From sequence record SRR16203515_818: a stretch of DNA of 41,191 nucleotides; one strand, 5' to 3'. The notes under the pieces were generated by a model, which had not been told where the DNA came from, searched no databases, and worked only from the letters and a program-made list of their open reading frames with translations. The translations under genes were made by a program, and so were the position numbers. Of this stretch, positions 1 through 34,596 are shown piece after piece (position 1 is the stretch's first letter; each line of letters begins with the position of its first letter).

Positions 1-516
1 GGCGAACCTTGCAACATTCTTGAAAACGAATATGTTAAACCCGGTAAAGGCCAAGCTTTTAACCGCGTAAAAATTCGTAAACTTATTTCTGGTAAAGTTT
101 TAGAGAAAACCTTCCGCTCAGGTGAGTCAGTAGAAGGCGCAGACGTAATGGATACGGAACTGGCCTACTTGTACACCGACGGTGAATTCTACCACTTTAT
201 GAATAATGATACATTCGAACAAATTGCTGCTGACGAAAAAGCGGTAGGTGACAATGTAAAATGGTTAGTAGAAAACGACGTCTGTACTATTACCCTATGG
301 AACGGTGCGCCTATTACGGTAACGCCACCCAACTTTGTTGAACTGGAAATTACCGAAACCGATCCAGGCCTGAAAGGCGATACCGCAGGTACCGGTGGTA
401 AGCCTGCTACCCTTAGTACAGGTGCAGTGGTTCGCGTGCCTTTATTCGTGCAAACTGGCGAAGTAATTCGTGTCGATACGCGCTCAGGCGAGTACGTTTC
501 GCGAGTACAAAAGTAA
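1..516 (+). CDS. efp: Elongation factor P, 5'-truncated by the window edge
   Basis: Frame 1 is open from base 1 ([20 protein letters not shown]), containing the PGKG modification loop; C-terminus has GDTA...KPATLSTG...VPLF...[13 protein letters not shown]. Confidence 0.97.
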
Positions 517-525
517 TAGCTTAGT

Positions 526-557
526 GCCGGTATTGAACGCTCAATACCGGCTTTTTT
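526..557 (+). terminator. Intrinsic terminator after efp
   Basis: GCCGGTATTGA(526-536)/TCAATACCGGC(541-551), 11-bp stem followed by T6. Confidence 0.85.
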
Positions 558-570
558 CCCTTCATATAAA

Positions 571-1548
571 ATGCTCCCTATGCACCAGTGGCAACCCACA
601 ACTTCTCATGCTAACCGCCTTGAACGGGCCAATTTACTGCGCACTATCCGCGACTTTTTTTATCACCGTAATGTATTAGAAGTAGATACCCCCACCTTGT
701 CACAAGGCACGGTAACCGATGAACATCTCGATGCATTTGTCACCGAGTTTCGCTATGCGTCAACGGGCAACGTTATCCCTTTGTATCTGCAAACCTCACC
801 AGAATACGCCATGAAGCGTTTACTGTGTGCCGATAGCGGCCCTATTTATCAAATCAGCAAGGCATTTCGCCATGAGGGTGAAGGGCGCTGGCATAACCCC
901 GAGTTCACCATGCTTGAATGGTATCGACCTGGCTTCACCCATATTGAGCTGATGGCGGAAGTGGATGCCCTGTTAATGGCTACTCTCGCCACTGAGGCTG
1001 GTGACAAAATCAGCTATCAGCAGGTGTTTATCGATGTATTGCAGATAGACCCGCTGACAGCCTCAAGTCAGGCCCTTAACCATGCAATGAACGCCTGTGG
1101 TATTAATATTGACGCGCCAGAGAGCTTAAGTGATGACAGTAAGTTACAGCTACTTTTCTCGATGGCGATTGAACCTGTAATAGGTCAACAACGGCCCTGT
1201 TTTATCTATGGTTTTCCGGCATCTCAGGCAGCCTTGGCAAAGATCAACGCACAGGATAATCGGGTAGCTGATAGGTTTGAGGTTTACTACCAAGGGGCAG
1301 AATTAGCCAATGGCTTCTACGAGCTATGTGCCCCTGAAGAACAACGCGCTCGTTTTCTTAAGGATAATGAAAAGCGTGTAGCGGCGGGGTTACCGACTAA
1401 ACCAGTTGATGAGCACTTCCTTGCTGCGCTTGAAGCCGGACTACCAGATTGTGCCGGCGTGGCATTAGGCATCGACCGACTCTTGATGATAAAAGTAGGG
1501 GCAGATCATATCAAAGAGGTGATCAACTTCCCGGTAAGCCGCGCATAA
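571..1548 (+). CDS. epmA: EF-P lysine-34 (R)-beta-lysine ligase (start may be ATG 580)
   Basis: LysRS catalytic-domain paralogue motifs YLQTSPEYAMKRLL, HNPEFTMLEWYR, ELANG, GVALGIDRL; adjacent to efp. Confidence 0.96.
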   Translation: MLPMHQWQPTTSHANRLERANLLRTIRDFFYHRNVLEVDTPTLSQGTVTDEHLDAFVTEFRYASTGNVIPLYLQTSPEYAMKRLLCADSGPIYQISKAFRHEGEGRWHNPEFTMLEWYRPGFTHIELMAEVDALLMATLATEAGDKISYQQVFIDVLQIDPLTASSQALNHAMNACGINIDAPESLSDDSKLQLLFSMAIEPVIGQQRPCFIYGFPASQAALAKINAQDNRVADRFEVYYQGAELANGFYELCAPEEQRARFLKDNEKRVAAGLPTKPVDEHFLAALEAGLPDCAGVALGIDRLLMIKVGADHIKEVINFPVSRA

Positions 1549-13841: not shown

Positions 13842-15227
13842 TCACGTTTTCTGGTGAGGCCGCTGAGCAATATCCACCACTTTCTGCGCAATACTGGCCA
13901 AGCTGGTATTTTCATTCATGGCCTGTTTTTGTAGCCGTCGATAGGCGTCATGCTCGCTAAGGTGAAATTGTTGCATTAATATGAGCTTTGCTCTGTCGGT
14001 TAGCTTGTGTTCGGTAATCGCCCGTTTCGCCTCTTCAAGCTCTTGGCTCATATCTTTAATGTACTGCGCCTGTCCTTGCAGTAAATCGTAGAATGAGCGG
14101 TGTGCTGATAATGCCTCGGTTTGACTATTGATTTGATAATTGTTGGTATGGTCGGCGTTAGTTTCAACGAGACTATTTTCAACGAGATTATCGTCAATAA
14201 GACTATCTTCAACGAGTCCAGGCATGTTGGGGTCGAATAACATAGTAAGTGGCGAGCCCTCGGGTACCTGTTCGTCAGAAAAGCTTTCAATTAATTGTTG
14301 ATGGTTTTTCATTTCATCTTGGGCATTGCGTACTTTCCCCTTAGCCGCCTTCACTAAACACTCTGTGACCTTATCTTCAATATCCTGCATGGCATCAATG
14401 CGACGTGTCGCAACATCAAACCACACTTCACTGATTTCCGGCGCAATAGGGCTGCCGTTGGCTAACTGTGCAATCATCTTTCGTAGTTGATTCACATCGT
14501 CACTCGTTGCACTGCATTCGAGTTGCTCAAGTAATTGGCGCTGGGGCGAGGATGAGAATTCACTAAACACGGAAAAATGATGCTGCTGGGCCTGTTGTAA
14601 CGCACAGAGTTTATCACACAGGCGCTTATCAAAATGGGTTTCCGCAAACCCTATGGCACCTCAGGCGCGCTCTTGTCCTGCATATTCTTTGCCTTGCATT
14701 AAGTTAAATAAGGCAACCAGCATACGGGTAATGGTGGGGTCGCTGGCAATATCTGCAGCTTCAAAAATTACCGTTAGTAGCCCAGCGACTAAGCGGCAGT
14801 AGGCGCGGGTCGACTCTAAGGCGGACAACGATAGCGAAGAAACCTTGTCTCTTAGTACTGGCAGATAATCAATGCCTTGTAGGGCTAAGGTCACGCTGCT
14901 GAGTAAGCGAGGGTTAGCATCAATGGTTTTATTGTTAAGAAATAACGACTTCAGTTGGCTGCGCAAGTTTTCCTCAGCGCTAATGGCTGACTGGATGTGC
15001 GTGTGGCGCTGGGCGGCGAAACGGGTACCTTTCGACGCAATATAGATATTACTGGCGCCCCGTTCCCGCTGCAGCGCATGCACCACCTGTTTTACGGCAA
15101 TCACTATACGGCAGTTACGCGATAGCTGTTCTAACACATGAATTTCTGCGTGTTTGGCGGCCAACAAAAAGCGCTTGGTGGCGTCACTCAAATGGCTAGC
15201 CGATGGGGTGTCGCTGTCAGTAAGCAT
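13842..15227 (-). pseudogene. nasR: Nitrate/nitrite-sensing antiterminator NasR (NIT + ANTAR), interrupted by one in-frame TGA at codon 189
   Basis: ORFs 14661-15227 and 13842-14570 share a frame and read continuously ...QGKEYAGQERA*GAIGFAETHF...; NIT motifs VHALQRERGAS and WFDVATRRIDAM; C-terminal ANTAR (TDRAKLILMQ...AYRRLQKQAMN). Full length would be 461 aa. Confidence 0.88.
14163..14216. repeat. Imperfect 15-bp tandem repeat (~3.6 copies) within nasR
   Basis: ttcaacgagactatt / ttcaacgagattatc / gtcaataagactatc / ttcaacgag; encodes L-VEDSL-IDDNL-VENSL-VE on the minus strand. Confidence 0.85.
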
Positions 15228-15532: not shown

Positions 15533-15820
15533 TTAGTTACGTACTACCCGTAAGAACCAGCCCACAAACAAAGAAATGAGAAAACCAAAAAAGGCCATTA
15601 ATACTGTCATGGTCATGAGCTTACCGGAAAAGTCAGCATTTTCCCCAGTCTGGTCACTGACCAACATACCCGATGCCTGAAAAATGAATAAGGTTGCGAT
15701 AGAAAACAACAGGATAACCACCGTCGATATTAGCGTAGCCTTCCAATAGTTTCTTGGCGCCATCCAGTGTATGGCCCCCGCTACAAGTACGCAGATAATA
15801 GTTAAAATATAAGGGACCAC
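15533..15820 (-). CDS. Small membrane protein (about 3 TM helices), unknown function
   Basis: 95 aa with three hydrophobic stretches; GTG start preceded by AGGAG. Confidence 0.8.
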   Translation of the reverse strand: MVPYILTIICVLVAGAIHWMAPRNYWKATLISTVVILLFSIATLFIFQASGMLVSDQTGENADFSGKLMTMTVLMAFFGFLISLFVGWFLRVVRN

Positions 15821-16249: not shown

Positions 16250-17815
16250 ATGTTTGATTTAATTACGAATCGAGATAGCAACGTAAAAAATGACGTGCTT
16301 TCTGGTATTACTGTTGCCTTAGCATTGGTGCCAGAAGCCGTAGCATTTGCCTTTGTGGCCGGTGTTGAACCCATGATAGGGTTATATGCAGCCTTTATGA
16401 TGGGCCTTATCACTTCTGCCATCGGCGGGCGTCCGGGGATGATTTCAGGGGCCACTGGTGCCATGGCGGTCGTCATGGTTGCCCTAGTTGCCCAACACGG
16501 CGTACAGTACCTTTTTGCTGCGGTCATACTGGCCGGTTTGCTGCAAATTATGTGTGGCGTGTTTAAGCTTGGAAAGTTTATCCGCCTAGTGCCTTACCCT
16601 GTTATGTTGGGTTTCGTTAATGGCTTGGCCATTGTTATCTTCTTAGCGCAGTTAGGTCAGTTCAAAGTGGTTAATGCCATGGGAGAGCTGTCGTGGATGC
16701 AGGGCACTATGCTGTATTGGATGCTAGGGTTAGTCGCGTTAACCATGGCGATCATTTACCTGCTCCCTAAACTTACCACCGCGGTACCGGCGTCATTAGT
16801 CGCTATCGTTACGGTCACGGCCTTGGTGCATGGGCTTGATTTAGAAGCGCGCACCGTTATTGATTTTGTTAGAGACTTATTGCCGGCTGAGCAAAAGGCA
16901 CAGGCTACCCTTGCGGGTGAACTGCCTAGTTTCGCGATTCCTATGGTGCCCTTTAATTGGGAAACCTTGATGATTGTTTTGCCTACCTCCGTCATTCTTT
17001 GTTTAGTGGGTCTTATTGAGTCATTGCTGACCTTATCGTTAATTGACGAAATGACCGATACCCGCGGACGAGGTAATAAAGAATGCGTAGGTCAAGGTGT
17101 GGCAAACACGGTGAATGGCTTCTTTGGCGGTATGGGCGGTTGTGCCATGATTGGTCAAAGTATGATTAATATTAACTCAGGTGGACGCGGACGCTTATCG
17201 GGCATTACTGCCGCTCTGGTATTACTTGGCTTTATTCTTTTCGCTGCCCCGTTAATTGAAATGATCCCCCTTGCCGCGCTCGTGGGCGTTATGTTTGTGG
17301 TCGTCATTGCCACCTTTGAATGGGCATCATTTCGTATCGTGCGTGGTGTCAATAAAGAAGATGCCTTTGTGCTTTTCCTCGTTACCGGTGTCACGGTAAT
17401 CGCCGATCTTGCCATTGCGGTAGTGGTAGGGGTTATTGTTTCGGCCTTGGTATTTGCCTGGAAGCATGCCCGCCATATTGCTGTGAAAAGCCATATCGAT
17501 AACGACGGTTGGAAAGTTTATGAGCTTGAAGGGCCGGTGTTTTTTGGCTCCATTACTCATTTCAAAGATTTATTTGATATTGCCAATGACCCGCAAGATG
17601 TGGTTATTGACTTTAAGGAGTCGCGTATTTGGGACTCGTCAGGTATCGATGCATTAGACACCTTGGCCGATAAATACGAGCAACAGGGTAAGAAGCTGCA
17701 TATTCGTCATATTAGTGATGAGTGTCGCAGTTTATTACGCAAAGCGGATAAGTTCGTTGAAATTAATGTGAACGAAGACCCCCGTTATCGCGTGGCGACA
17801 GATAAACTCGCGTAG
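16250..17815 (+). CDS. SulP/SLC26 family anion transporter with C-terminal STAS domain
   Basis: [45 protein letters not shown] region GPVFFGS...DSSG. Confidence 0.93.
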
Positions 17816-17936: not shown

Positions 17937-17951
17937 TGGCACTGATCTTGG
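17937..17951 (+). promoter_or_regulatory. sigma54 promoter of the nirB operon (non-canonical -12)
   Basis: TGGCAC-TGATC-TTGG versus TGGCAC-N5-TTGC. Confidence 0.65.
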
Positions 17952-18043
17952 ATACAAAGTAAGTGTATGTGTAAATGTGTGTAGAGCATTTCGCTCAAAA
18001 CAATGTGTGAGTTGTGATTAGTGTTTGATCGCAGCGTTAGATA

Positions 18044-18088
18044 GGCAAAGAAGCCCGCTCCAACTTTGGTTGGTGCGGGCTTTTTTTT
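18044..18088 (+). promoter_or_regulatory. ANTAR-type hairpin overlapping a leader terminator (nirB attenuator)
   Basis: GGC-AAAGAA-GCC (18044-18055; hexaloop A1/G4, C-G closing pair) overlaps the 5' arm of AAGCCCGC.CCAAC/GTTGG.GCGGGCTT + T-run (to 18088). Confidence 0.8.
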
Positions 18089-18111: not shown

Positions 18112-20661
18112 ATGACATCTCTGACATCAGCAAACCGAATTCTAATTGTGGGTAACGGCATGGTGGGACACCACTTTGTAGAGCAGTTGCATCAAGAATA
18201 CCCCGACGCCCAAATAACCGTGCTCTGTGGCGAGTCGCGTCTCGCCTACGACAGAGTGCACTTATCTTCTTATTTTAGTGGCGCCAGCGCAGATGACTTA
18301 GCCTTAACCGATGCCGACACCTATGGCGAGTGGGGAGTAGAGTTTGTTACCAATGCCATGGTAAGCGATATTTTACGGGATGAGAAAAAGGTAATAACTC
18401 AGGATGGTGCCGTTTACAGTTATGACAAGCTGGTGCTTGCGACAGGCTCTTATCCTTTCGTTCCGCCTATCCCCGGTAATAACCAGCCCCATTGTCTGGT
18501 CTACCGTACTATTGATGACTTAGAAGCCATTGAAGCCGCGGCCAGAGAAAGTAAAACCGGCGTAGTGGTCGGTGGTGGCTTGTTAGGGCTAGAGGCGGCC
18601 AACGCGTTAAAGGACGCCGGCCTTGAGACCCATGTGGTTGAGTTTGCGCCCCAATTGATGGCGGTACAGCTCGATGTAACAGGGGGCCAAGTACTAAGAG
18701 ATAAAATTGAAGATCTTGGCGTAACCGTGCATACCCAAAAAGCCACCCAAGTGATTGAGAAAGGGCAGCAGGCGCGCTATCGCATGGTGTTTGCCGATGA
18801 CAGTTTTTTAGAAACCGACATGATCTTATTTTCTGCCGGTATTCGCCCTTCAGACCAATTGGCGAAAAAAGCTAATCTGCAACTTGGCGAGCGAGGCGGT
18901 ATTGTCATCGATGATCATTGCCTGACCTCAGACCCAGATATCTACGCCATTGGTGAATGTGCCCTGTGGCAAAATCGTATTTTTGGCCTAGTGGCACCTG
19001 GCTATACCATGGCCCGCGCTGCGGTTAGTCATCTCACCGGCGGTGATACCCTATTTACCGGTGCCGATATGAGCACTAAATTAAAATTAATGGGGGTAGA
19101 AGTTGGCTCCATCGGCGATGCTCACGAGCGTACACCCGATGCGCAAAGTTACACTTATTTCAACCAGCCCGCAGGCGTGTATAAAAAGCTGGTGGTAGAT
19201 GGCGCGCAGAAAAAGGTATTAGGGGCGGTATTGGTCGGCGATACCAGTGATTATGACACCTTATTACAGTATGCCTTAAATGACATTGAGTTGCCCGCCC
19301 AGCCAGAAAGCTTGATCCTTCCCAATAGTGATGCGGCGCCCGCCTTAGGAGCTGACGCACTGCCCGATACGGCCACTATTTGCTCATGTCACAACGTAGC
19401 GAAAAACGACATAGTGTCGGCCATTGATACGGGCTGCTGCAGTTTAGGGGATGTTAAAGGCACCACCAAAGCCAGTACTGGCTGTGGGGGATGTACTGCG
19501 TTGCTGAAAAATGTGGTGGATAGTGAGCTTGAAAAGCGTGGGGTTGAGGTATCAAAAGCACTTTGCGAGCACTTCGACTACACCCGACAAGAGCTGTTTC
19601 ATATAGTGCAGGTTAACGGTATTCGTTCCTTTGATGCACTTATCGAAAGTCATGGAAAAGGCTTAGGCTGCGAGGTGTGTAAGCCGGCGGTGGGCTCAAT
19701 TCTCGCCTCGGTATACAACGACTATATTCTTAAAAATGAGCACCTGCCGTTACAAGATACCAATGATATCTATTTGGGCAACATGCAAAAAGACGGTACC
19801 TACTCTATTGTACCTCGGGTGGCAGGCGGTGAAATTACCCCAGATAAACTTATTCTGCTTGGTGAAGTGGCGAAGAAATATAATCTTTATACCAAGATCA
19901 CGGGCGGCCAGCGTATCGACTTATTTGGCGCGCGGGTAGAAACCCTGCCTGAGATTTGGCAAACCTTGGTAGAAGGCGGCTTTGAAACCGGCCATGCCTA
20001 TGCTAAAGCCTTACGTACCGTGAAGTCCTGCGTGGGCAGCACATGGTGTCGTTATGGTGTGCAAGACTCGGTGAAAACCGCCATCGATTTAGAGAATCGT
20101 TACAAAGGTTTACGGGCTCCTCACAAAATCAAATTTGCCGTATCTGGCTGTACCCGCGAGTGCGCTGAAGCACAAAGTAAAGACATTGGGGTTATCGCCA
20201 CCGAAAATGGCTGGAACTTATATGTCTGCGGTAATGGCGGCATGAAACCTCGCCATGGGGATCTGTTTGCCACCGACTTAGATACTGACACCTTAGTGCG
20301 CTATATCGATCGTATCTTAATGTTTTACATTCGCACCGCAGATAGACTCCAGCGCACCTCGGTGTGGATGGACAATTTAGAAGGCGGCTTGGACTACCTG
20401 CAAGAGGTGGTGATCAACGATGCCCTTGCGATCAATCAAGACCTTGAAGCGCAAATGCAGACAGTAATTGAAAACTACCAGTGCGAATGGAAAACCACCA
20501 TTGAAAATGAGGCGTCACGCAAACGTTTCCGTCAGTTTGTGAATAGTAAAGCCACCGATGCCAATATTCAGTTTGTTGATGAACGGGGGCAAGTGCGCCC
20601 AGCCACCGAGATGGAAAAGAAGCTGGGGGCCAATAAAGCCATTCCAGTTGAACTGGTATAA
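18112..20661 (+). CDS. nirB: NADH-dependent nitrite reductase large subunit
   Basis: GNGMVG FAD motif, GGGLLGLE, BFD-like CSCH..CGGC and CEH..CEVC, siroheme/4Fe-4S SCVGSTWC and SGCTREC; GAGGAG before ATG 18112. Confidence 0.97.
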   Translation: MTSLTSANRILIVGNGMVGHHFVEQLHQEYPDAQITVLCGESRLAYDRVHLSSYFSGASADDLALTDADTYGEWGVEFVTNAMVSDILRDEKKVITQDGAVYSYDKLVLATGSYPFVPPIPGNNQPHCLVYRTIDDLEAIEAAARESKTGVVVGGGLLGLEAANALKDAGLETHVVEFAPQLMAVQLDVTGGQVLRDKIEDLGVTVHTQKATQVIEKGQQARYRMVFADDSFLETDMILFSAGIRPSDQLAKKANLQLGERGGIVIDDHCLTSDPDIYAIGECALWQNRIFGLVAPGYTMARAAVSHLTGGDTLFTGADMSTKLKLMGVEVGSIGDAHERTPDAQSYTYFNQPAGVYKKLVVDGAQKKVLGAVLVGDTSDYDTLLQYALNDIELPAQPESLILPNSDAAPALGADALPDTATICSCHNVAKNDIVSAIDTGCCSLGDVKGTTKASTGCGGCTALLKNVVDSELEKRGVEVSKALCEHFDYTRQELFHIVQVNGIRSFDALIESHGKGLGCEVCKPAVGSILASVYNDYILKNEHLPLQDTNDIYLGNMQKDGTYSIVPRVAGGEITPDKLILLGEVAKKYNLYTKITGGQRIDLFGARVETLPEIWQTLVEGGFETGHAYAKALRTVKSCVGSTWCRYGVQDSVKTAIDLENRYKGLRAPHKIKFAVSGCTRECAEAQSKDIGVIATENGWNLYVCGNGGMKPRHGDLFATDLDTDTLVRYIDRILMFYIRTADRLQRTSVWMDNLEGGLDYLQEVVINDALAINQDLEAQMQTVIENYQCEWKTTIENEASRKRFRQFVNSKATDANIQFVDERGQVRPATEMEKKLGANKAIPVELV

Positions 20662-20676
20662 CCGAGGGAGAAGACA

Positions 20677-21033
20677 ATGACAGCAACAACTCAACTTGCC
20701 GCACAATGGTATGACCTATGTGGTTTGGACGATCTGGTTGAAAACAGTGGTATATGCGCATTAGTCAATCAGCAACAAGTGGCTATTTTTGCCGTTACCA
20801 TAGAGGGTGAGCAGCAAATTTATGCCATCAGCAACTGGGACCCAGTTGGTAAGGCGAATGTACTTTATCGCGGATTATTAGGCTCTGTGGGTGAGGAGAT
20901 TGTGGTTGCCTCCCCCTTATACAAAGAACACTACTCCTTGTCCTGTGGGCGCTGTTTAGAGCGGGATGATGTGAGTGTGATTGCCTATAAGGTGCGCCGT
21001 GAAGGTGAGCGTTTACAAATCGCCATGGAATAA
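20677..21033 (+). CDS. nirD: Nitrite reductase small subunit
   Basis: YAISNWDP..KANVLYRG, VASPLYKEHY..GRCLE; follows nirB. Confidence 0.95.
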   Translation: MTATTQLAAQWYDLCGLDDLVENSGICALVNQQQVAIFAVTIEGEQQIYAISNWDPVGKANVLYRGLLGSVGEEIVVASPLYKEHYSLSCGRCLERDDVSVIAYKVRREGERLQIAME

Positions 21034-21101: not shown

Positions 21102-23849
21102 ATGACTACACCACGCCGCGAACTAACTAAGCAACAAATGAGGCAATCTACCTGCCCCTATTGTGGAGTAGGCTGTGGTGTAGATATCAGTTGCAACGTA
21201 ACCGGGGGGGCCGTTTCCCTAGACAATATTACTGGCACCCCAGAGCATCCGGCCAATCATGGTCGTCTGTGTGTAAAAGGAACCAACCTGTTAGAGACAA
21301 ACAGCCTAGATGGGCGTTTACTCAACCCAACCATAGCAGGGGAAAAGGTAGCGTGGGACACGGCGACTACCCTTATTGCCAAGAAAATATCACAGACTAT
21401 TGCCCAGTATGGTGCGGATGCCGTTGCCTTTTATGTTTCAGGGCAGCTATTAACCGAAGATTATTACGTTGCCAATAAATTGATGAAAGGCTTTATTGGT
21501 AGCGCCAATATTGATACCAATTCCCGCTTGTGTATGTCGTCCGCCGTCGCCGCGTATAAACGAGCCTTTGGCGAAGACGTGGTGCCATGTGATTACACTG
21601 ACATCGAGTCTACCGATTTATTAATCTTAACCGGCAGTAATACTGCCTGGGCGCATCCGGTATTATTTCAGCGTATTGCCCGGGCCAAATTACGTAACCC
21701 TGCCATGAAGGTAGTGGTGATAGACCCCCGTAAAACAGAAACCTGTACCATTGCCGATCTACACCTGCCTCTTAAAGGCGGCTCAGATGTGGCACTCTTT
21801 AATGGCCTGCTTAATTTTGCTTACCGCCACGACCATATTCATCAACCCCGAGTGAGCGCGTTTGCTGATGGGCTTGATAATGCCATCGAAGCCGCCTTGC
21901 CCTGGGATATTAGTAAGGTGGCACAGTATTGCGATCTGGACGCTAACGCGCTGGACACCTTTTATTCATGGTTTTGCCAAGCCAGTAGTGCGGTGACCTT
22001 TTATTCCATGGGCGTGAATCAGTCATCACAGGGAGTGGATAAAGCCAACGCCATTATTAATTGCCATTTAGCCTGTGAGCAAATAGGTAGGGTAGGCACT
22101 GGGCCTTTTTCTATCACCGGGCAACCCAACGCGATGGGGGGACGGGAAGTCGGCGGACTTGCCAATATGTTAGCTGCCCATCTAGATATCGAAAATCCAG
22201 CCCACCGAGATAGCGTGCAAGCGTTTTGGCAGGCACCTAGCTTATGTGAAACTCAAGGCTTAAAAGCGGTGGATATGTTCGATACCATGGCCGCGGGAAA
22301 GATTAAATTTGTATGGATAATGGGGACAAACCCTGTGGTGAGCATGCCAGATCGCGAGCAAGTCGAAGCGGCCCTGCGCGCATGCGACACTGTGGTGGTA
22401 TCAGATATTGTCACTCGCAATGATACCTTAGCGTACGCCGACATTGCGTTACCTGCCACAGGCTGGTCTGAAAAAGACGGCATGGTGACCAATTCAGAGC
22501 GTCGAATGTCCCGTCAACGAGGTATATTACCACCCCCGGGTGACGCCAAACACGATTGGCAAATTATCTGTGAAGTGGCAAAAAAAATGGGCTATGGCGA
22601 TGCCTTTGCCTATACCCACTCTTACCAAATTTTCGATGAATTCGCCCGTTTAACGGCCAAAGACAATCACGGTAAGCGGTTGCTTAATTTGTCACCGTTG
22701 GTGGGTATGACGAAAAAAGAGTATGACAAATTAGGCCCTCTTCAATGGCCTTTTACCAAGGCAAAAGATGGCGCCTTCCACAGTACTCGTCCGTTCTCTT
22801 CATTGTCCTTTTCAACGCCCACGGGCAAAGCGCGTTGTATTCCTGTAACCCCGTCATTGCCTAAGCAAGTTACGTCAGAAAAATATCCCTACGTGCTTAA
22901 TAGCGGTCGTGCGCGGGATCAATGGCACACCATGACCCGTACCGGCAAGGCCGCAAAACTCCATGCCTCTATGCCCCATGCTGCGGTATATGTGCATCCT
23001 AACGATGCGAAGGCGGCAGGCGTTCGCGAACATGGCTATGCCATGCTAACTAGTGCAGTAAGTGGCGAAGAACCCTGTATTTTCCCCGTTAAACTAGATA
23101 AAGGGTTACGGGCCGGTGATTTATTTGTGCCTATTCATTGGTCAGCCGCGTGGGGGTCTCACACTAAGCTAGCCAAGCTATATGCACCGGCTACCGATGC
23201 AATTTCAGGGCAACCTGAGCTAAAACATGGGGCAGTGCGTCTTAGCGCTAAAACCTTTACCACCTATGGCATGGTATGTATTCGCGAGCAGGACGCGGCG
23301 TTATTTTCTGTGGATAGCCTAAGCTATTGGGCGAAAACCCAATTAGAACATGGCGTGAAATGGGCCATGGCCTGTGAACAGTCATTAGATGAAAGCCTGG
23401 CAGCACTGGTTGCCAAACTGCCCAAGCATTGGGTGGTGTATCAACGCAAAACCGGCCAGTCTGCCCAGGTGGTCTGTACCGAAAAAGAGCGGTTATGCGC
23501 GTATTTTTCATTTGGCGATAGCTGCCCTAGTCAGGCTCCATCATGGCAAGTGCCTGATGCGTGGATAGATAGCCTGCTAAATGAAAGTCTATCCGCAGCG
23601 AACCAAAGCAATTTACTGCATGGCCATGTCGATGAGGCGTTCACTCAAGGCGAACTCATCTGCAGTTGCTTTAGTGTGCGCGAGAAAACCATTCAACACG
23701 CCGTGCAAAACGGGTGTCACAACCTAGATGCATTGGGCAAGCAGCTTAACTGCGGTACTAACTGTGGTTCATGTAAACCACGCTTAAGTGAAATTATAGA
23801 TGACACCTTATCGATGCTGGCGTTGCCCGTTGCAGCGTCACTAGATTAG
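21102..23849 (+). CDS. nasA: Assimilatory nitrate reductase catalytic subunit (Mo-bisPGD)
   Basis: CPYCGVGC..LCVKG, SGQLLTEDYY, DTNSRLCMSS, TGQPNAMGGREVG, DQWHTMTRT; C-terminal BFD-like CSC...CGTNCGSC. Confidence 0.96.
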   Translation: MTTPRRELTKQQMRQSTCPYCGVGCGVDISCNVTGGAVSLDNITGTPEHPANHGRLCVKGTNLLETNSLDGRLLNPTIAGEKVAWDTATTLIAKKISQTIAQYGADAVAFYVSGQLLTEDYYVANKLMKGFIGSANIDTNSRLCMSSAVAAYKRAFGEDVVPCDYTDIESTDLLILTGSNTAWAHPVLFQRIARAKLRNPAMKVVVIDPRKTETCTIADLHLPLKGGSDVALFNGLLNFAYRHDHIHQPRVSAFADGLDNAIEAALPWDISKVAQYCDLDANALDTFYSWFCQASSAVTFYSMGVNQSSQGVDKANAIINCHLACEQIGRVGTGPFSITGQPNAMGGREVGGLANMLAAHLDIENPAHRDSVQAFWQAPSLCETQGLKAVDMFDTMAAGKIKFVWIMGTNPVVSMPDREQVEAALRACDTVVVSDIVTRNDTLAYADIALPATGWSEKDGMVTNSERRMSRQRGILPPPGDAKHDWQIICEVAKKMGYGDAFAYTHSYQIFDEFARLTAKDNHGKRLLNLSPLVGMTKKEYDKLGPLQWPFTKAKDGAFHSTRPFSSLSFSTPTGKARCIPVTPSLPKQVTSEKYPYVLNSGRARDQWHTMTRTGKAAKLHASMPHAAVYVHPNDAKAAGVREHGYAMLTSAVSGEEPCIFPVKLDKGLRAGDLFVPIHWSAAWGSHTKLAKLYAPATDAISGQPELKHGAVRLSAKTFTTYGMVCIREQDAALFSVDSLSYWAKTQLEHGVKWAMACEQSLDESLAALVAKLPKHWVVYQRKTGQSAQVVCTEKERLCAYFSFGDSCPSQAPSWQVPDAWIDSLLNESLSAANQSNLLHGHVDEAFTQGELICSCFSVREKTIQHAVQNGCHNLDALGKQLNCGTNCGSCKPRLSEIIDDTLSMLALPVAASLD

Positions 23850-23862
23850 GTAGGAGAGAGCC

Positions 23863-24786
23863 ATGCATACCCTAACCAACCGACTTCAGCTGTTAACCAA
23901 AACCAGCCTTGATACCACACGGCTCTACAAATACTGCCGCGCTGGCTGGGAAAAGATGACCGGGTATATCACCGATAAACAGCATAATGAGTCTGTCGTA
24001 AGTACCACGAATGATCAGGGTAAAGTGTTTATTGTAGGCGCTGGGCCAGGGGATGCTGATTTACTTACCATGAAGGCAATAAAAGTGATCCAACAGGCCG
24101 ATATCGTGCTGTTTGATGCGCTAGTCAGTGAAGACGTACTGGCCATTATTCCAAATCATGTTGGCCGTGAGTTTGTCGGCAAACGTTGCGGCAAACATAG
24201 CATGAGCCAACAGGATATTTGTCAAAAAGTGGTTGCGCTCGCTGCCAGCGGGTTAACGGTGGTGCGATTAAAAGGTGGCGATCCTGCGTTATTCGCCAGA
24301 ACCTGTGAAGAAACCACGGCCTTAAGTGCCGCCCAAATCCCGTTTGCCATCGTGCCGGGCATTACCGCGGCTTCAGGGATGTCGGCCTACACAGGGATCC
24401 CGTTAACCGATCGCCGTTGCGCCCAAGCGGTGAGTTTTATTACCGCGCATTTTAGCGACCCCGATACTTGGCCTGATATGCAACGGTTAAGCGCAACCAT
24501 GCAACAACAAACCGTGGTGGTATACATGGGATTAAATCGTTTGGGTTTATTATCAGCGCGATTACAAGCGGCGGGATTAAGTGCCGATTGGCCCGTGGCG
24601 GCAGTGGAAAATGCCACCAGTGAAAAGCAAACCATACTCACAGGGTCCTTATCCACCTTGCCTCAACGGGTCAAACAAGCAAACCTTACCGGACCTACGT
24701 TACTTGTATTTGGAAAAGTGGTAGAGTCGAAGCAGGACGTTTCATTATCTCTGCTTCAATCGAATCACCATGTCACAGCAATTTAG
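23863..24786 (+). CDS. cobA: Uroporphyrinogen-III C-methyltransferase (SUMT domain only), N-terminal extension
   Basis: VGAGPGDADLLT, VRLKGGDP, VPGITAA, GIPLTDR, YMG. Confidence 0.92.
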   Translation: MHTLTNRLQLLTKTSLDTTRLYKYCRAGWEKMTGYITDKQHNESVVSTTNDQGKVFIVGAGPGDADLLTMKAIKVIQQADIVLFDALVSEDVLAIIPNHVGREFVGKRCGKHSMSQQDICQKVVALAASGLTVVRLKGGDPALFARTCEETTALSAAQIPFAIVPGITAASGMSAYTGIPLTDRRCAQAVSFITAHFSDPDTWPDMQRLSATMQQQTVVVYMGLNRLGLLSARLQAAGLSADWPVAAVENATSEKQTILTGSLSTLPQRVKQANLTGPTLLVFGKVVESKQDVSLSLLQSNHHVTAI

Positions 24787-25765
24787 CGAATATATAAAGA
24801 TAATTGGCAAAGGCCAAAAAGGCGGGCGTAGTTTAACCCGCACCGAGGCTTACCATGCCATGAAAATGGTACTGGCTAGGCAAGTTACCGGCGAACAACG
24901 TGGTGCATTTTTAATGCTACTGCGTACGCGAGAAGAAACCCCAGAGGAAGTGATTGGGTTTGTGGATGCGTGTAGAGAGTTACTCGCCCCTGAATTAGCC
25001 ACCTTAACCCCGCAACTCGATATTGGCTGTTATGCCGGTAAGCGGCGACAGCTGCCGTGGTATTTGTTAGCCGTTGCCATACTCGCACAAAAGGGGTATT
25101 CGGTGATGTTACATGGCGCTCATGAGCCAGGCTCGGGACGGCTTTATGCCAGTGCGGTATTACCCACCTTAGGGTTACCCGCTGCGCAAACCATTGAGCA
25201 GGCCCAAGAGCAACTGTCATCGGTGAATGTCACCTATCTCGACCTTTCCCACTTATTAGGCCCACTAGACGACTTAATTAAATTGCGTGAAGTCTTTGGC
25301 CTACGATCCTGTGCCAATACCCTTGCTAGGTTGCTCAATCCTACGCGGGCAAAATGTTGTGTGCAGGGGGTGTATCATATGCACCTTGACCATAAACACT
25401 GTCGTGTGAATGAAGCCTACCCTCAATTTGATGCCCTTTGTTTTCGTGGTGATGGTGGCGATCCTGAGGTAAATAGCGAACGGGATACCGAGTTGTATCT
25501 TACCCGTAATGGGCAAACCCAGACAGTCGTTTTACCCTCACAAATTGACACCTGGGCAATGAAAGACAAGCAGATGCAATGTGAAGCTATGCTAGGGTTT
25601 TGGCAGGGAAAGCGAGAGCACAATTATGCTGCCCAGTCGGTTATTGCCACCTTAGCCAGTTACATTCTGTTGTTAGAAAACTGCACTATGGAAGCGGCAT
25701 TATCACTGGCAAATCAATGGTGGTGCGAACGTAATCAAACACACTTGCCTTTTGCTACCTGCTAG
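24770..25765 (+). CDS. YbiB/TrpD2-like glycosyltransferase family 3 protein
   Basis: YIKIIGKG..GGRSLT, GAFLMLLR..EET, YAGKRR, GLRS..NTLARLLNP, FRGDGG; overlaps cobA by 17 nt. Confidence 0.85.
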   Translation: MSQQFSEYIKIIGKGQKGGRSLTRTEAYHAMKMVLARQVTGEQRGAFLMLLRTREETPEEVIGFVDACRELLAPELATLTPQLDIGCYAGKRRQLPWYLLAVAILAQKGYSVMLHGAHEPGSGRLYASAVLPTLGLPAAQTIEQAQEQLSSVNVTYLDLSHLLGPLDDLIKLREVFGLRSCANTLARLLNPTRAKCCVQGVYHMHLDHKHCRVNEAYPQFDALCFRGDGGDPEVNSERDTELYLTRNGQTQTVVLPSQIDTWAMKDKQMQCEAMLGFWQGKREHNYAAQSVIATLASYILLLENCTMEAALSLANQWWCERNQTHLPFATC

Positions 25766-25922: not shown

Positions 25923-25938
25923 TGGCATAAACACTGCT
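25923..25938 (+). promoter_or_regulatory. sigma54 promoter of the nitrate transport operon
   Basis: TGGCAT-AAACA-CTGCT with exact GG-N10-GC spacing. Confidence 0.72.
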
Positions 25939-26077: not shown

Positions 26078-26136
26078 GGCAACGAAGCCCACCAGCAAGT
26101 AATGCTAATCCATTACTTGCTGGTGGGTTTTTTTTT
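26078..26136 (+). promoter_or_regulatory. ANTAR-type hairpin overlapping a leader terminator (nrtA attenuator)
   Basis: GGC-AACGAA-GCC (26078-26089; A1/G4 hexaloop) overlaps a terminator with 17 Watson-Crick pairs (26088-26104/26111-26127) followed by T9. Confidence 0.82.
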
Positions 26137-26153
26137 GGCTTCGAGGAACGCAT

Positions 26154-27557
26154 ATGTCGATATCAAATAAAATTTCACGGTTACAAGCACTACCCCGAAA
26201 GGTGACTCAACTACTGACCCTAGCGTGGCTAGTCACTACGCCACTGAGCATGGCACAAGATGACGACGCCGTGGGCTGGCCAGAAAAAGAAGAGCTTAAG
26301 TTTGGTTTTATCAAACTTACTGATATGGCACCGTTAGCTATTGCCTATGAGAAAGGCTTCTTCGAAGACGAGGGGCTTTATGTCACCTTGGAAGCACAAG
26401 CGAACTGGAAAGTGTTACTCGATCGGGTTATTGATGGGCAATTAGATGGCGCCCATATGCTGGCCGGGCAACCCCTTGGTGCAACTATTGGGTTTGGTAC
26501 CGAATCCCATGTGGTCACCGCCTTTAGTATGGACTTAAATGGCAATGGCATTACGGTTTCAAACGATGTGTGGCAGAAAATGCAGGCCCACATACCTCAT
26601 CAACAAGGAAAGCCGGTACACCCCATCAAAGCCGACTACTTAAAGCCGGTGGTGGATGAATATCGACAAGCAGGTAAGCCTTTTAAGATGGGCATGGTGT
26701 TTCCGGTTTCAACCCACAACTACGAGTTACGTTACTGGTTAGCTGCGGGAGGCATTCATCCTGGTTATTACGCACCCCATAAAGGAGATACCTCAGGTCA
26801 AATTGACGCTGATGCGTTGTTGTCGGTAACACCGCCACCGCAAATGCCGGCCACCATGGAAGCTGGCACCATACATGGTTACTGCGTTGGTGAGCCGTGG
26901 AATCAGCAAGCAGTATTTAAGGGCATTGGTGTGCCTGTGATCACCGATTATGAAATATGGAAAAACAACCCAGAGAAGGTGTTTGGCGTCAGCCAGTCAT
27001 GGGCTGAAGCCTACCCCAATACTCATATTCGGGTAGTCAAAGCGCTTATTCGCGCCGCCATGTGGTTAGATGAAAACAACAACGCCAACCGCCCGGAAGC
27101 GGTAAAGATTCTGGCTAAAAGTCACTATGTTGGGGCCGACGAAGAAGTGTTGGCCAATAGTATGACAGGCACCTTTGAGTACGAAAAAGGGGACAAGCGT
27201 GACGTACCAGACTTTAATGTGTTCTTTCGATATAACGCCACCTTTCCCTACTACAGTGATGCCATATGGTATCTCACCCAAATGCGTCGCTGGGGACAAA
27301 TTGCCGCGCCCAAAACCGATGATTGGTATAAAGATATCGCCCGTAAGGTCTATAAACCTGCGGTATACGCCAAGGCAGCCAAAGCACTTATTGCTGAAGG
27401 TAAAGCGAACCCGGCTGACTTCCCCGAATTCGACACTGAAACCGGCTTTAAACCACCGCAAAGTGAATTTATTGACGGCGTAACGTATGACGGCACTGCC
27501 CCGAACGCGTATTTAGAGCAATTTAGTATTGGTCTGAAAAGCGACACTGTCCTTTAA
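26154..27557 (+). CDS. nrtA: Nitrate ABC transporter substrate-binding protein (CmpA/NrtA/NasF family)
   Basis: [58 protein letters not shown]. Confidence 0.93.
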
Positions 27558-27590
27558 CCACGCAGCCAGATGGCGAACCACGGAGAAGTT

Positions 27591-28586
27591 ATGAGTAAAA
27601 TGACAAATATCCTTAGCATAGCGCCTGGTAGAGCGCCTAGCGAGGGCGCATTGGGAAAACTATATCAGCAGGCCCCTGTGGTACTGCTACCACTTATCGG
27701 CCTGTTAATGTTTTTGGCGGTATGGAACGGGGTAGCTAAAAGTATCGATACCTCACTAGGCGAGTTTCCCGGCCCGGTCCAGGTATGGGAGCAAGCAGGG
27801 GTACTTATAGACGAGCACGCGGTGCAGCGGGATAAGGCGGATGCGTTTTACTTGCGCCAAGAAAAGCGCAATGCAGCGCGGGTAGCCCAAGATCCCAGTT
27901 ACCAGCCCAAAGTCCGTGATTTCACCGGCGCCCCGACCTTCTTCGATCAGATATGGACCAGCCTCTATACGGTGATGGTGGGCTTTGTTATTGCCTCTGT
28001 TATCGCCGTACCCTTAGGCATAGTCTGTGGGTTAAGCAAGTCGGCCTATACTGCAATTAACCCGCTAATACAGTTATTTAAACCGGTATCGCCACTGGCT
28101 TGGTTACCCCTTGTCACTATGGTGGTCAGTGCCCTTTATGTCAGTGATGATCCGGCCTTTTCTAAGTCATTCATCACGTCGGCATTTACGGTGGCCTTGT
28201 GCTGCCTATGGCCCACATTGATTAATACAGCGGTGGGCGTATCTAGCATAGACAGTGATTTACTTAATGTGAGTAAGGTGCTGCGCCTGACGCCTCTGTC
28301 TCATTTAACCAAGATTGTTCTGCCGTCTTCCATTCCGATGATTTTTACCGGCTTACGCTTATCCCTAGGCATAGGTTGGATGGTATTAATTGCCGCTGAA
28401 ATGCTGGCCCAAAACCCGGGACTCGGAAAGTTTGTATGGGATGAATTTCAAAATGGCAGTTCAGAGTCTCTCGCTCGAATTATGGTGGCGGTATTAACCA
28501 TTGGTGCCATCGGATTTATTTTAGACCGCGTCATGTTATCAGTGCAGCGGTTAGTCAGCTGGGACAAGTCCAGCGTATTGCGCTAA
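27591..28586 (+). CDS. nrtB: Nitrate ABC transporter permease
   Basis: KPVSPLAWLP, WPTLINT, GLRLSLGIGWMVLIAAEM, GLGKFVWDE; GGAG before ATG 27591. Confidence 0.92.
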   Translation: MSKMTNILSIAPGRAPSEGALGKLYQQAPVVLLPLIGLLMFLAVWNGVAKSIDTSLGEFPGPVQVWEQAGVLIDEHAVQRDKADAFYLRQEKRNAARVAQDPSYQPKVRDFTGAPTFFDQIWTSLYTVMVGFVIASVIAVPLGIVCGLSKSAYTAINPLIQLFKPVSPLAWLPLVTMVVSALYVSDDPAFSKSFITSAFTVALCCLWPTLINTAVGVSSIDSDLLNVSKVLRLTPLSHLTKIVLPSSIPMIFTGLRLSLGIGWMVLIAAEMLAQNPGLGKFVWDEFQNGSSESLARIMVAVLTIGAIGFILDRVMLSVQRLVSWDKSSVLR

Positions 28587-28600
28587 TTAAGGAGCCAACC

Positions 28601-29467
28601 ATGCAATCTAAACACTTAGAATTATCGCAAGTAGGCATCGACTTCCCTACGCCAAAGGGGCCCTTCACTGCCTTAACCGATGTAAATTTAAAAATTGCCA
28701 AAGGTGAGTTTGTTTCGCTTATTGGGCACTCAGGCTGTGGTAAGTCAACGGTACTTAATATTGTGGCCGGGTTACATCAAGCTACCACTGGTGGCGTTAT
28801 CCTCGATGGCGCAGAGGTGACTAGCCCCGGACCTGAACGGGCAGTGGTGTTTCAAAACCACTCTCTGCTGCCTTGGCTAAGCGTGTATAAAAACGTGGAA
28901 CTCGCGGTTAAGCACGCCATGCGAGGGCAATCTAAAGCGCAAATGCGCGAATGGGTGATGCATAACTTAGAGCTGGTGCATATGACCCACGCCCTCGATA
29001 AACTGCCGAGTGAAATTTCAGGCGGTATGAAGCAGCGCGTGGGTATTGCCCGGGCCTTATCTATGCAGCCCAAAGTTCTGCTCATGGACGAACCCTTCGG
29101 TGCTCTCGATGCCTTAACGCGGGCGCACTTACAAGACGCGTTAATGGAGATCCACGCCAATTTAGGCAATACCGTCATTATGATCACCCACGATGTGGAC
29201 GAAGCCGTTCTGCTGTCTGACCGAATTGTGATGATGAACAATGGCCCAGCAGCAACCATAGGTGAAGTACTCGAGGTTGACTTACCTCGCCCTCGGGAGC
29301 GTCTGGCGTTAGCAGATAGCCCGGCTTATAACCACTATCGACATGAGGTGCTGACCTTCTTATACGACAAGCAAAAAAAGATTGAGCCGGTAGCACAACA
29401 TCGCAAAAACAATAGCACTAAGGCGACATCAAAGGGCAAAACCGCGAAGAGTACCGATGCCGCTTAA
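28601..29467 (+). CDS. Nitrate ABC transporter ATP-binding protein (NrtC/NrtD/NasD type)
   Basis: Walker A GHSGCGKS, ISGGMKQR, MDEPFGALD, THDVDEA. Confidence 0.93.
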   Translation: MQSKHLELSQVGIDFPTPKGPFTALTDVNLKIAKGEFVSLIGHSGCGKSTVLNIVAGLHQATTGGVILDGAEVTSPGPERAVVFQNHSLLPWLSVYKNVELAVKHAMRGQSKAQMREWVMHNLELVHMTHALDKLPSEISGGMKQRVGIARALSMQPKVLLMDEPFGALDALTRAHLQDALMEIHANLGNTVIMITHDVDEAVLLSDRIVMMNNGPAATIGEVLEVDLPRPRERLALADSPAYNHYRHEVLTFLYDKQKKIEPVAQHRKNNSTKATSKGKTAKSTDAA

Positions 29468-29612
29468 GCGGCTCGTCATCACTTAAGTAAACACACGTAA
29501 TGTTACGCACTCATCTTGGCTTTTTAGCCGAGCGGGGAGCCCTTTACCGTTTTATTCACGCTCTGCAAGGGCGCATTAGATCACGCGATACAGTTCAAAA
29601 AGGGAACGCACA

Positions 29613-30833
29613 ATGAAAATTCAACAGCAATTTACCGGTACATTCATCGCTTGTGCTGCTTTATCGGCACTTAGTCACCCGGTCAGTGCACAAGAGTGGC
29701 AAGAGGTACTTAGCCAATCTGACGCATGGGCGGACGTAAATTTACGCTACGAGAGTGTGGAGCAAGACAATAGCCTAGCGGACGCGAGCGCGCTCACCTT
29801 ACGTACCCGACTTGGTTTTCAAACGGGCACGCTCAATGGTTTTTCATTTACTGCGGAAGTGGAAGATAGCCGCATTGTTTTAGGGCAAGGCGACTATACG
29901 GTAGGGCCGACGAGGTATAATCTTGGCGAATATTCGGTGATAGCAGACCCGGAAACCACCGAAGTTGATCAAGCCTTTGTGCAATACAAAAAAGATAAGT
30001 TAACCCTTAAAGCCGGACGGCAGGTGATTGCATTAGATAACCATCGTTTTATTGGCCATGTGGGCTGGCGTCAAGATCGTCAAACCTTCGATGGGGTTAG
30101 TACCCACTACGCATTAAATGACAAGGTTGAGCTATTTTATGCGTATCTGAACCAGCGAAATCGTATTTTTGCAGAGGCGGCGGATATTGATAGTAGCGAC
30201 CATCTCATTCATGCCAGTGTCAGCACAGCGGTGGGTAAATTTAGCGGTTATGCCTATTTATTGGAAGTAGACAACCAAACCGAGAATAGTCTAGATACCT
30301 ACGGTATACGCTATAGCGGGGCATACACCAGTGACTCCCTCGCCTGGCAATACGGTGCAGAGTTGGCTACCCAGTCTAGCCAAACCGGTGAGGGTGAGAG
30401 TGAGGCGGATTTTGATGCCACTTACTTTAATGGCTTTTTAGCCGCTAAAGTATCAGGCATCACAGCAAAAATTAATTATGAAGTACTTGGCAGTGACAAG
30501 GGCGAATATGGGTTTGCCACGCCATTAGCGACCTTGCATAAGTTCAACGGCTGGACCGATCAATTCTTAACCACACCAGCACAAGGTTTAGTGGACACCA
30601 CCTTCTCATTAAGCGGTGGAGCAGTAGGGGGCAAATGGTTACTCGCCTATCATAATTTCAATGCCGATGAGCCTACCGAAGGGGTGGATGATTTAGGCAG
30701 TGAGATAGATATCCAATACACCACAAGGGTGATGCAATCGTTGAACGTAGGGGTAAAGTACGGCCACTATATGGCGAAGGATAGCAAGGTAGATGCCGAT
30801 AAATTCTGGCTGTGGGTGGGCACCCGTTTCTAG
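29613..30833 (+). CDS. Alginate-export-family outer-membrane beta-barrel (probable anion porin)
   Basis: Signal peptide; LRYE..LRTRLG, GRQ..DNHRFIGHVGWRQ..QTFD, FATPLATLHKFNGW; C-terminal F. Confidence 0.82.
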   Translation: MKIQQQFTGTFIACAALSALSHPVSAQEWQEVLSQSDAWADVNLRYESVEQDNSLADASALTLRTRLGFQTGTLNGFSFTAEVEDSRIVLGQGDYTVGPTRYNLGEYSVIADPETTEVDQAFVQYKKDKLTLKAGRQVIALDNHRFIGHVGWRQDRQTFDGVSTHYALNDKVELFYAYLNQRNRIFAEAADIDSSDHLIHASVSTAVGKFSGYAYLLEVDNQTENSLDTYGIRYSGAYTSDSLAWQYGAELATQSSQTGEGESEADFDATYFNGFLAAKVSGITAKINYEVLGSDKGEYGFATPLATLHKFNGWTDQFLTTPAQGLVDTTFSLSGGAVGGKWLLAYHNFNADEPTEGVDDLGSEIDIQYTTRVMQSLNVGVKYGHYMAKDSKVDADKFWLWVGTRF

Positions 30834-30839
30834 GAGGAC

Positions 30840-31490
30840 GTGATGTTGAAATACGCACCTACCACGACTGCTGTCCAAGCCTTTTTACTGTGCGGCGGGC
30901 AATCTCGCCGTATGGGCATCGATAAGGCTAAGCTAACCTATGGCGGCGAGTCGTTTGAGCAAAGAATAAAACAGGTTGCGCTCAAAAGTGGCGTGAAGCA
31001 CCTTTATACAGTAGGCGGAGCGAGTAGGGATATTGTGGATGAACGGCCTCATCATGGCCCCGCTGCGGCAAGCATAGCTGCAATGAACGAACGCTATAAC
31101 GACGAAAACCTATTACACGCTGACATACTGCTACTGTTACCGGTAGATATGCCTTTGCTCAGCGTATCGGTGTTAAGGCACCTTATCGATGCTACGCGCG
31201 ATCACCAGCAAAGTCATTATTTTAACCGCGACTGGTTTCCCCTTGCCATCTATCAGCCCTATCGTTATCTAAAGGCGTTAAATCAATTGCTTGCCGGTAA
31301 CCCGATGCCCGCGATGAAGTCGTTTGCTAAGGTATGCGAGGCGCAGACACTGGCGTTACCAACGGCACTGCATCATCAATTAATGAATGTGAACACACCG
31401 GTAGAGTTTACGGCATTAACAGGAAACGAGGAGTACTCGCCTCGTGCAGACACAAAAAAGGCCGATACGCTGAACGTATCGGCCTGTTGA
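30840..31490 (+). CDS. mobA: Molybdenum cofactor guanylyltransferase-like (divergent MobA)
   Basis: LLCGGQSRRMGIDKA, HGP, PVDMPLL, NVNTP; AGGAGG before GTG/ATG. Confidence 0.78.
   Translation: MMLKYAPTTTAVQAFLLCGGQSRRMGIDKAKLTYGGESFEQRIKQVALKSGVKHLYTVGGASRDIVDERPHHGPAAASIAAMNERYNDENLLHADILLLLPVDMPLLSVSVLRHLIDATRDHQQSHYFNRDWFPLAIYQPYRYLKALNQLLAGNPMPAMKSFAKVCEAQTLALPTALHHQLMNVNTPVEFTALTGNEEYSPRADTKKADTLNVSAC
31454..31485 (-). terminator. Intrinsic terminator of dsbA, lying inside the mobA-like 3' end
   Basis: AGGCCGATACG(31459-31469)/CGTATCGGCCT(31475-31485); A6 at 31454-31459 gives a U-tract on the minus strand. Confidence 0.82.
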
Positions 31491-34327: not shown

Positions 34328-34395
34328 GTGCGTTCTCGTTATGCGCTCCGCCCGAGCACAAGAGTTAAGGGTGTAGCAGATGCACTCTGCCGTGA

Positions 34396-34596
34396 GGCTC
34401 AGGCCGGTATCCGGGCTCACTCACCAAACCATGGCTCTTTGCCTTCCCATCTTGTTGTACTAGCAACACATAGACAGTGGCATCGTAAGAAAATACGTAA
34501 CGTATTGAGTTTACCGTTGCGGGGGCAGCATCAGTATTTCACTGATTTCCCGTTTAACCCTTCATGAAATTATTTTAATGAAAGGCACCTAAGCGG
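34396..34596 (-). ncRNA. Cobalamin (AdoCbl) riboswitch
   Basis: Minus strand AGGTGC...TTAAACGGGAA.TCAGTGAAATACTGA.GCTGCCCCCGCAACGGTAA...GCCACTG...GGGAAGG...GAGCCCGGATACCGGCC (B12 box); TATACT -10-like at 34602-34607. Confidence 0.95.

Follow-up and report, generated by a model that had tools for sequence, protein, structure and literature searches.

The window analysed here, a stretch of 41,191 nucleotides from sequence record SRR16203515_818, carries the genes for nitrate assimilation on its plus strand and, next to them on the minus strand, a gene of the nasR type, with a NIT sensor domain followed by an RNA-binding ANTAR domain (Table 1). The gene forms one frame of 461 codons with a terminal TGA, and the frame is interrupted just once, by another TGA at codon 189, between QERA and GAIGF. 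A sequence-only reading of the stretch had described a single stop in an otherwise continuous frame with both domains, and this description is borne out by the translation and by the matches to Pfam profiles. With the stop read as X (P0001), residues 47-289 match the NIT profile PF08376 over positions 1-236 of 239 (174.5 bits, E = 6.3e-51), and residues 398-451 match the ANTAR profile PF03861 over its full length (1-54; 62.3 bits). Scanned apart, the two pieces match one and the same NIT model, the piece before the stop at positions 1-138 and the piece after it at 171-236; they are one gene cut in two and not two genes. The 272 codons 3' of the TGA hold no further stop or frameshift, and among the 33 open reading frames (ORFs) taken as genes in the window, with 12,234 codons in total and not a single N in the whole stretch, the TGA of nasR is the only internal stop.

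The affiliation of the gene is clear from its homology. The structure of NasR from Klebsiella oxytoca (4AKK, chain A) aligns with the translated protein over both domains (E = 2.3e-36), and the features by which a protein of this type is recognised, a NIT domain, a C-terminal ANTAR domain after a long helix and homology to a characterised NasR, are all present; the uninterrupted frame from sensor to output is lost at codon 189. By descent, the gene is a NIT-ANTAR antiterminator, a kind that is already known, and at present it is a pseudogene or a nonsense allele.

The state of the codon before the lesion can be read from the relatives. A protein search gave 710 of them at E <= 0.001, and the best 120 of the 710 were used for picking two alignments, A1 with 22 sequences spanning 99 % to 44 % identity and A2 with 34. 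The column of codon 189 is tryptophan in every sequence of A1 (22/22) and in 32 of the 34 of A2, the remaining two having cysteine (P0108, a distant relative) and lysine (P0116); the aligned residue of K. oxytoca NasR is leucine. At the DNA level, a scan of species-representative genomes provided five loci, from Alteromonas profundi (84 % identity), an Aestuariibacter, a Marinobacter metagenome-assembled genome (MAG), an unclassified MAG and Motiliproteus sediminis, and codon 189 is TGG in all five. Given the tryptophan column and the TGG of the loci, the lesion is therefore a change from TGG to TGA, a G>A transition on the coding strand. The parent codon that the sequence-only reading had guessed at thus agrees with the orthologs, and TGA recurs neither among the aligned relatives nor in the five loci. 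A Dcm-type 5-methylcytosine hot spot was considered as the cause of the change and rejected: the hot spot lies at the inner C of CCTGG, and the ancestral sequence does contain a CCTGG site, but the base that changed is the partner of its outer C.

The best match to the nasR protein, P0002, was assembled from a read archive and is an intact protein of 461 residues, 99 % identical to that of the window. The two differ only at position 189, tryptophan in P0002, at position 257, aspartate in P0002 and asparagine in the window, and at position 395, with lysine and glutamine, respectively. All seven closest relatives (P0002-P0008) have aspartate at 257, and by this comparison the asparagine of the window looks derived. 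The codons of both residues (257 at 14459-14457 and 395 at 14045-14043, on the minus strand) lie 3' of the stop. Their interpretation as a sign of decay was rejected: under uniformity, the chance of both falling downstream is ~0.35, and two differences are too few to speak for relaxed constraint.

Over a longer time, both halves of the gene have been constrained. In the comparison with A. profundi, the proportion of synonymous differences (pS) is 0.74 upstream of the stop and 0.81 downstream of it, the synonymous sites being saturated, and the ratio of nonsynonymous to synonymous proportions (pN/pS) amounts to 0.056 for the upstream part, 0.13 for the downstream part and 0.065 within the coiled coil and ANTAR domain. 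The gene has been under constraint for essentially all of its divergence from A. profundi, and this long constraint, together with the intact relative at 99 % identity and the otherwise undamaged frame, means that the stop is recent. The comparison with A. profundi cannot date it more finely.

The same near-identical relative also feeds the suspicion that the organism really has TGG and an intact nasR, and that the stop is an error of base calling. A single base separates the TGA from the expected codon, P0002 as the nearest relative has the tryptophan, no other assembly turned up that carries the stop, and in the ancestral sequence four consecutive G would have stood where one now reads A. 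The change is, however, a substitution and not an error in homopolymer length, and with no N and no other broken frame among the ORFs surveyed, the assembly is not visibly error-prone, which argues mildly against an error. Moreover, the two private amino acid differences from P0002 show that the window comes from a strain of its own, and a mutation private to such a strain would be nothing unusual. We consider a miscalled base unlikely. The host is a marine Alteromonas-like bacterium, and the stop in its nasR is an ordinary strain-specific knock-out or else such an error.

The conserved column bears equally on programmed recoding, under which the TGA would be read as selenocysteine or, in a TGA=Trp code, as tryptophan. 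A 6-bp hairpin starting 9 nucleotides 3' of the TGA might be taken to favour this; the same hairpin follows the TGG in A. profundi (L001), however, and therefore derives from conserved coding sequence. A selenocysteine site was rejected: column 189 is tryptophan in nearly all of A2, the homologous position offers neither selenocysteine nor, beyond the one distant relative, cysteine, and there is no selenocysteine insertion sequence specific to the copy with the UGA. A TGA=Trp code (table 4) was rejected as well, as TGA is the terminator of 4 of the 33 ORFs, among them nasR, which stops at the same C terminus as P0002, and one internal TGA in the whole codon set stands against 165 TGG codons that encode tryptophan. 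To recoding of either form we give almost no credence.

The position of the stop within the protein can be judged from an AlphaFold model of the intact relative (mean predicted local distance difference test score, pLDDT, 80.3; predicted template modelling score, pTM, 0.71). Residue 189 is placed within a helix spanning residues 164-195, in the middle of the sensor domain and with a local pLDDT of ~93. The modelled protein is all-helical up to residue 318, after which come a linker at 338-373, with pLDDT below 50 and predicted to be disordered, a long helix at 373-421 and the two short helices of the ANTAR domain. In both alignments, A1 and A2, the TGA stands immediately 3' of an invariant G-Q-E-R-A motif. 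E175 and R176 in helix 5 of K. oxytoca NasR are reported as predicted nitrate-pocket residues (Goodson et al., PMC7496416), and they probably correspond to the E-R of the motif. Judging from profile and model, the product of 188 residues would comprise roughly half of the sensor and lack the RNA-binding domain.

Translation might resume downstream of the stop, at the GTG at 14570 or at a later ATG, and produce a sensor-less fragment with coiled coil and ANTAR domain that binds the operon leaders without nitrate, making expression nitrate independent. In-frame start codons are indeed present 3' of the stop, and the sequence-only reading was right that the GTG exists and that no strong ribosome-binding site precedes it; the GTG opens an ORF of 242 codons, but the restart itself that the reading had proposed finds no support in the sequence. 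The GTG sits 30 codons 3' of the stop and shows no Shine-Dalgarno complementarity (duplex +0.3 kcal/mol), while the best Shine-Dalgarno match (-6.4 kcal/mol, before the ATG at 14243) is ~12 nucleotides from the start, which is too far. The attraction of the idea lies in K. oxytoca NasR, where broken contacts between NIT and ANTAR are reported to lead to constitutive RNA binding and the ANTAR domain is regarded as intrinsically active (PMC7496416), and in EutV, a piece of which with ANTAR domain and coiled coil is reported to bind RNA (PMC3369931). The notion of a constitutive ANTAR domain, however, rests in that account on point mutants and not on truncations (PMC7496416), and we find an active restart product very improbable.

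The genes that NasR is expected to control are undamaged. The sequence-only reading had noticed no stop or frameshift in nirB, nirD, nasA, cobA and nrtABC, and this holds by profiles and by the survey of ORFs and, for the first four, also by alignment with A. profundi; the integrity of the genes at 26154..31490 was judged from profile coverage alone, which is full for nrtA, nrtB and nrtC/D. The porin and the MobA-like transferase that follow nrtABC directly may both serve NasA, the one as a channel in the outer membrane and the other with a molybdenum-cofactor step. Within the nirBD-nasA-cobA operon, the YbiB-like (TrpD-like) gene shares 17 nucleotides with the end of cobA; over its first 169 residues it is 89 % identical to a gene in the same place in A. 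profundi. On both sides of nasR the gene order is that of A. profundi, with PAP2, BolA, AlkB-like and RlmG on one side and a 95-residue membrane protein, SulP, nirB, nirD, nasA and cobA on the other.

The leaders of the two operons appear equally undamaged. Strong terminators had been claimed for both, and G+C-rich hairpins followed by runs of T are confirmed in each: the fold of the nirB leader has a z-score of -4.84 and that of the nrtA leader -5.42, with 0/200 shuffles as stable in either case. In a scan for the terminator consensus, the nrtA terminator was the top match; that of nirB, with its interrupted stem, was not listed and was seen by folding and direct reading. Targets of ANTAR proteins are described as having a hairpin, P2, of at least 3 bp, with A in the first and G in the fourth position of a hexaloop, that overlaps the 5' base of an intrinsic terminator (PMC3369931). 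Both leaders have precisely this, a 3-bp stem with an A1/G4 hexaloop at the 5' foot of the terminator, and the arrangement is found also in the genome loci L001 and L002 (upstream of nirB), L003 and L005, the last two in the form GGAC-AACGGC-GUCC. P2-like hairpins have a background of 3.8 per kb per strand; the 13-nucleotide box common to the two leaders, a pattern chosen post hoc, occurs in the window at these two sites only. From just upstream of P2 to the ATG of nirB, 82 of 83 columns are identical to A. profundi despite the saturated synonymous divergence in the neighbouring gene. Rfam gave no match to an ANTAR target in the window, its only hit being a cobalamin riboswitch. Upstream of each leader lies a sigma-54-like box, the pattern having two matches in the window, one per leader; at least two matches occur in 38/100 shuffles, and as a post hoc choice the pattern carries no statistical weight.

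Table 1. Features of the nasR locus and of the nitrate-assimilation operons, in window coordinates.
Feature	Coordinates	Strand	Basis or state
nasR-type gene (NIT sensor and RNA-binding ANTAR), 461 codons, interrupted once	13842..15227	-	profiles, 4AKK, 99 % identical intact P0002
Premature TGA, codon 189; ancestral TGG (Trp); C>T at plus-strand 14661	14661..14663	-	alignments, genome loci
N-terminal ORF, 188 codons: first half of NIT only, no ANTAR	14664..15227	-	NIT profile 1-138/239; stop within helix 164-195
242-codon ORF from in-frame GTG: NIT tail, linker, coiled coil, ANTAR; hypothetical restart product, no ribosome-binding site seen	13842..14570	-	ORF, profiles, Shine-Dalgarno check
sigma-54-like box TGGCAC-N5-TTGG upstream of nirB leader, identical in A. 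profundi	17937..17951	+	pattern match, post hoc
P2-type hairpin GGC-AAAGAA-GCC, nirB leader; 3' arm is 5' foot of terminator	18044..18055	+	scan against motif of PMC3369931
nirB leader terminator: interrupted G+C-rich stem, T8, 23 nucleotides 5' of nirB ATG	18048..18088	+	fold and direct reading
nirB	18112-20661	+	open; 849/849 residues aligned end to end with A. profundi
nirD	20677-21033	+	open; 118/118 aligned with A. profundi
nasA	21102-23849	+	open; 915/915 aligned with A. profundi
cobA	23863-24786	+	open; 307/307 aligned with A. profundi
Glycosyl-transferase-family-3 / YbiB-like gene	24770-25765	+	open
sigma-54-like box TGGCAT-N5-CTGC upstream of nrtA leader	25923..25937	+	pattern match, post hoc
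P2-type hairpin GGC-AACGAA-GCC, 5' foot of nrtA leader terminator	26078..26089	+	scan against motif of PMC3369931
nrtA leader terminator: 20-bp stem, T run, ~15 nucleotides 5' of nrtA ATG	26085..26139	+	consensus scan, fold
nrtA	26154-27557	+	open; profile coverage
nrtB	27570-28586	+	open; profile coverage
nrtC/D	28601-29467	+	open; profile coverage
Porin, alginate-export family	29613-30833	+	open; profile coverage
MobA-like nucleoside triphosphate transferase	30840-31490	+	open; profile coverage

We favour the explanation, given a probability of about 0.7, that a recent change of TGG to TGA (Trp189 to stop) inactivated NasR, so that nitrate assimilation can be induced only poorly and a single base change would revert the defect. 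A recent nonsense mutation in a NasR-type antiterminator with intact targets had been the leading proposal of the sequence-only reading, and it is supported by the tryptophan and TGG ancestry, by the near-identical intact relative and by the intact operons and leaders. In the mechanism that we envisage, a sigma-54-type promoter would drive each of the two operons, nirBD-nasA-cobA and nrtABC, and transcription would then meet the terminator of the leader; nitrate-bound NasR would bind the hexaloop hairpin, which shares its 3' arm with the terminator as the 5' foot of the latter, and by blocking terminator formation the binding would let transcription go on. As the mutant gene would supply a half sensor of 188 residues without the RNA-binding domain, transcription of both operons would end in the leaders. 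A region of ~13.5 kb, from roughly 17.9 to 31.5 kb, would then be poorly inducible until a single base change restored the codon. The allele is possibly leaky, in that misreading of the UGA by the tryptophan transfer RNA (tRNA-Trp) would yield the native protein. The model for all this is K. oxytoca NasR, which is reported to activate nasF by antitermination in the leader, the ANTAR domain being needed for RNA binding (PMC7496416, PMC3369931).

The likeness to the Klebsiella system of the nasF operon (4AKK) extends from the NIT-ANTAR architecture, with homology over both domains, to the surroundings: the nasR of the window adjoins nitrate-assimilation operons, and these have leader terminators with an A1/G4 hexaloop hairpin at the foot as well as sigma-54-like boxes. 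The nasF promoter of Klebsiella depends on sigma-54 and NtrC. Unlike the Klebsiella gene, however, the copy of the window is cut at codon 189, and the aligned residue in Klebsiella is leucine and not tryptophan; the predicted disordered linker is longer, the target leaders number two and not one, and P1, the upstream hairpin, was not found convincingly. The NasS-NasT pairs of Paracoccus, Pseudomonas and Azotobacter similarly use an ANTAR antiterminator that acts on nas or nirBD leaders, and NasT is reported as essential for nirBD expression in P. putida (PMC10783516). They differ from NasR in that sensing falls to a second protein, and NasT carries a receiver domain in place of NIT; by domain annotation, the window contains no NasS-NasT pair. 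At the level of titles and abstracts, no account of a broken nasR was found in the literature, and the matches listed there include no study of an Alteromonas nasR gene.

Several points weigh against the favoured explanation of an inactivated NasR. A truncated twin of the 188-residue fragment was not found: a homology search at E <= 1e-30 gave 11 matches among 398 candidates, with identities of 45-79 %, and the three short-fragment matches whose sequences were inspected (P0122, P0105 and P0125) include no 188-residue twin. In the leaders, an upstream P1 hairpin with an A1/G4 hexaloop was not convincingly found, a strict scan giving none near P2. The nirB leader does contain a 9-bp hairpin at 18012-18036 (plus strand), the stem of which is kept in A. 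profundi (L001, minus strand) through three one-sided, pair-preserving changes and the 7-nucleotide loop of which is entirely different there; this hairpin may represent a P1 that has diverged, or else some leader element of another kind. The dependence of both operons on NasR, and hence the cryptic state of ~13 kb, would follow by analogy with Klebsiella and from the anatomy of the leaders, and a second ANTAR regulator elsewhere in the genome, such as NasT of a NasT/NasS pair, could take over. Finally, UGA is leaky in some bacteria, and some native NasR may still be made.

If the leakage were large enough to matter, the stop would reduce the dose of the regulator and not knock it out: tRNA-Trp would read the UGA at a low rate and insert the native tryptophan, and a small NasR dose, possibly variable among cells, would still induce the operons. 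Read-through of UGA is described as a competition of Trp-tRNA-Trp with RF2, and the reported rates in Escherichia coli are ~2 % at 37 C and ~4 % at 25 C, heterogeneous among cells (PMC10570021), or ~12 % with another reporter (PMC9481147). Tryptophan is, furthermore, exactly the ancestral residue at 189. With the reporter that gave ~12 % in E. coli, however, the rates in two Pseudomonas species were no higher than 0.08 % and 0.04 % (PMC9481147). The stop is absent from the 32 relatives with tryptophan and from the relative at 99 %, and nothing suggests that selection maintains it; the small hairpin after the stop also follows the TGG in A. profundi, leaving no read-through structure specific to the allele. 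Of the earlier suggestion that read-through limits the regulator dose, what survives is a plausible, unselected leakage, while the absence of the stop from the relatives gives no sign of selected dose control, and we regard effective induction by read-through as quite improbable. Just as doubtful is the more elaborate idea of the opal codon as a dose valve, in which read-through would yield authentic NasR and make nitrate assimilation low-level, heterogeneous and condition dependent, a reversible state of the 13.5-kb pathway resembling bet-hedging. As a leaky allele, the stop would resemble the classical opal (UGA) nonsense alleles of bacterial regulators, which are misreadable by tRNA-Trp and revertible by one base; it differs from them in that the residue inserted by misreading would here be that of the wild type.

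Provided that the base call is correct, a recent inactivation of NasR would have left a strain in which nitrate and nitrite assimilation can hardly be induced, or not at all, although its set of genes is complete and well conserved, and surveys of gene content that score the presence of nasA or nirB would wrongly call the strain a nitrate user. The codon would form a natural one-base switch, and revertants obtained by selection on nitrate should have codon 189 restored; they would prove genetically the NasR-type antitermination of both operons in Alteromonas, for which the argument so far comes from Klebsiella. In other respects, this is an ordinary strain-level loss-of-function allele.

The remaining observations concern the neighbourhood. 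Between nasR and nirB, the gene of a SulP-family transporter with a STAS domain (16250-17815, plus strand) is 96.5 % identical to that of A. profundi, the identities around it being lower (94 % for nirB, 81 % for nasA and 77 % for cobA). The 95-residue predicted membrane protein (15533-15820, minus strand), located between nasR and sulP, belongs to no Pfam family and is 90.5 % identical to a protein in the same position in A. profundi. The cobalamin riboswitch (RF00174, 34385-34607 on the minus strand, 100.5 bits) precedes a gene for a BtuB-like TonB-dependent receptor (ORF 32393-34420); the ORF as started at a GTG overlaps the riboswitch, so that the true start must be further downstream. The first 1548 nucleotides of the window (1-1548, plus strand) contain the end of the gene for EF-P and then a gene for a 325-residue protein similar to class II tRNA synthetases, which we take to be the usual pair of EF-P and EpmA, the latter involved in lysylation.

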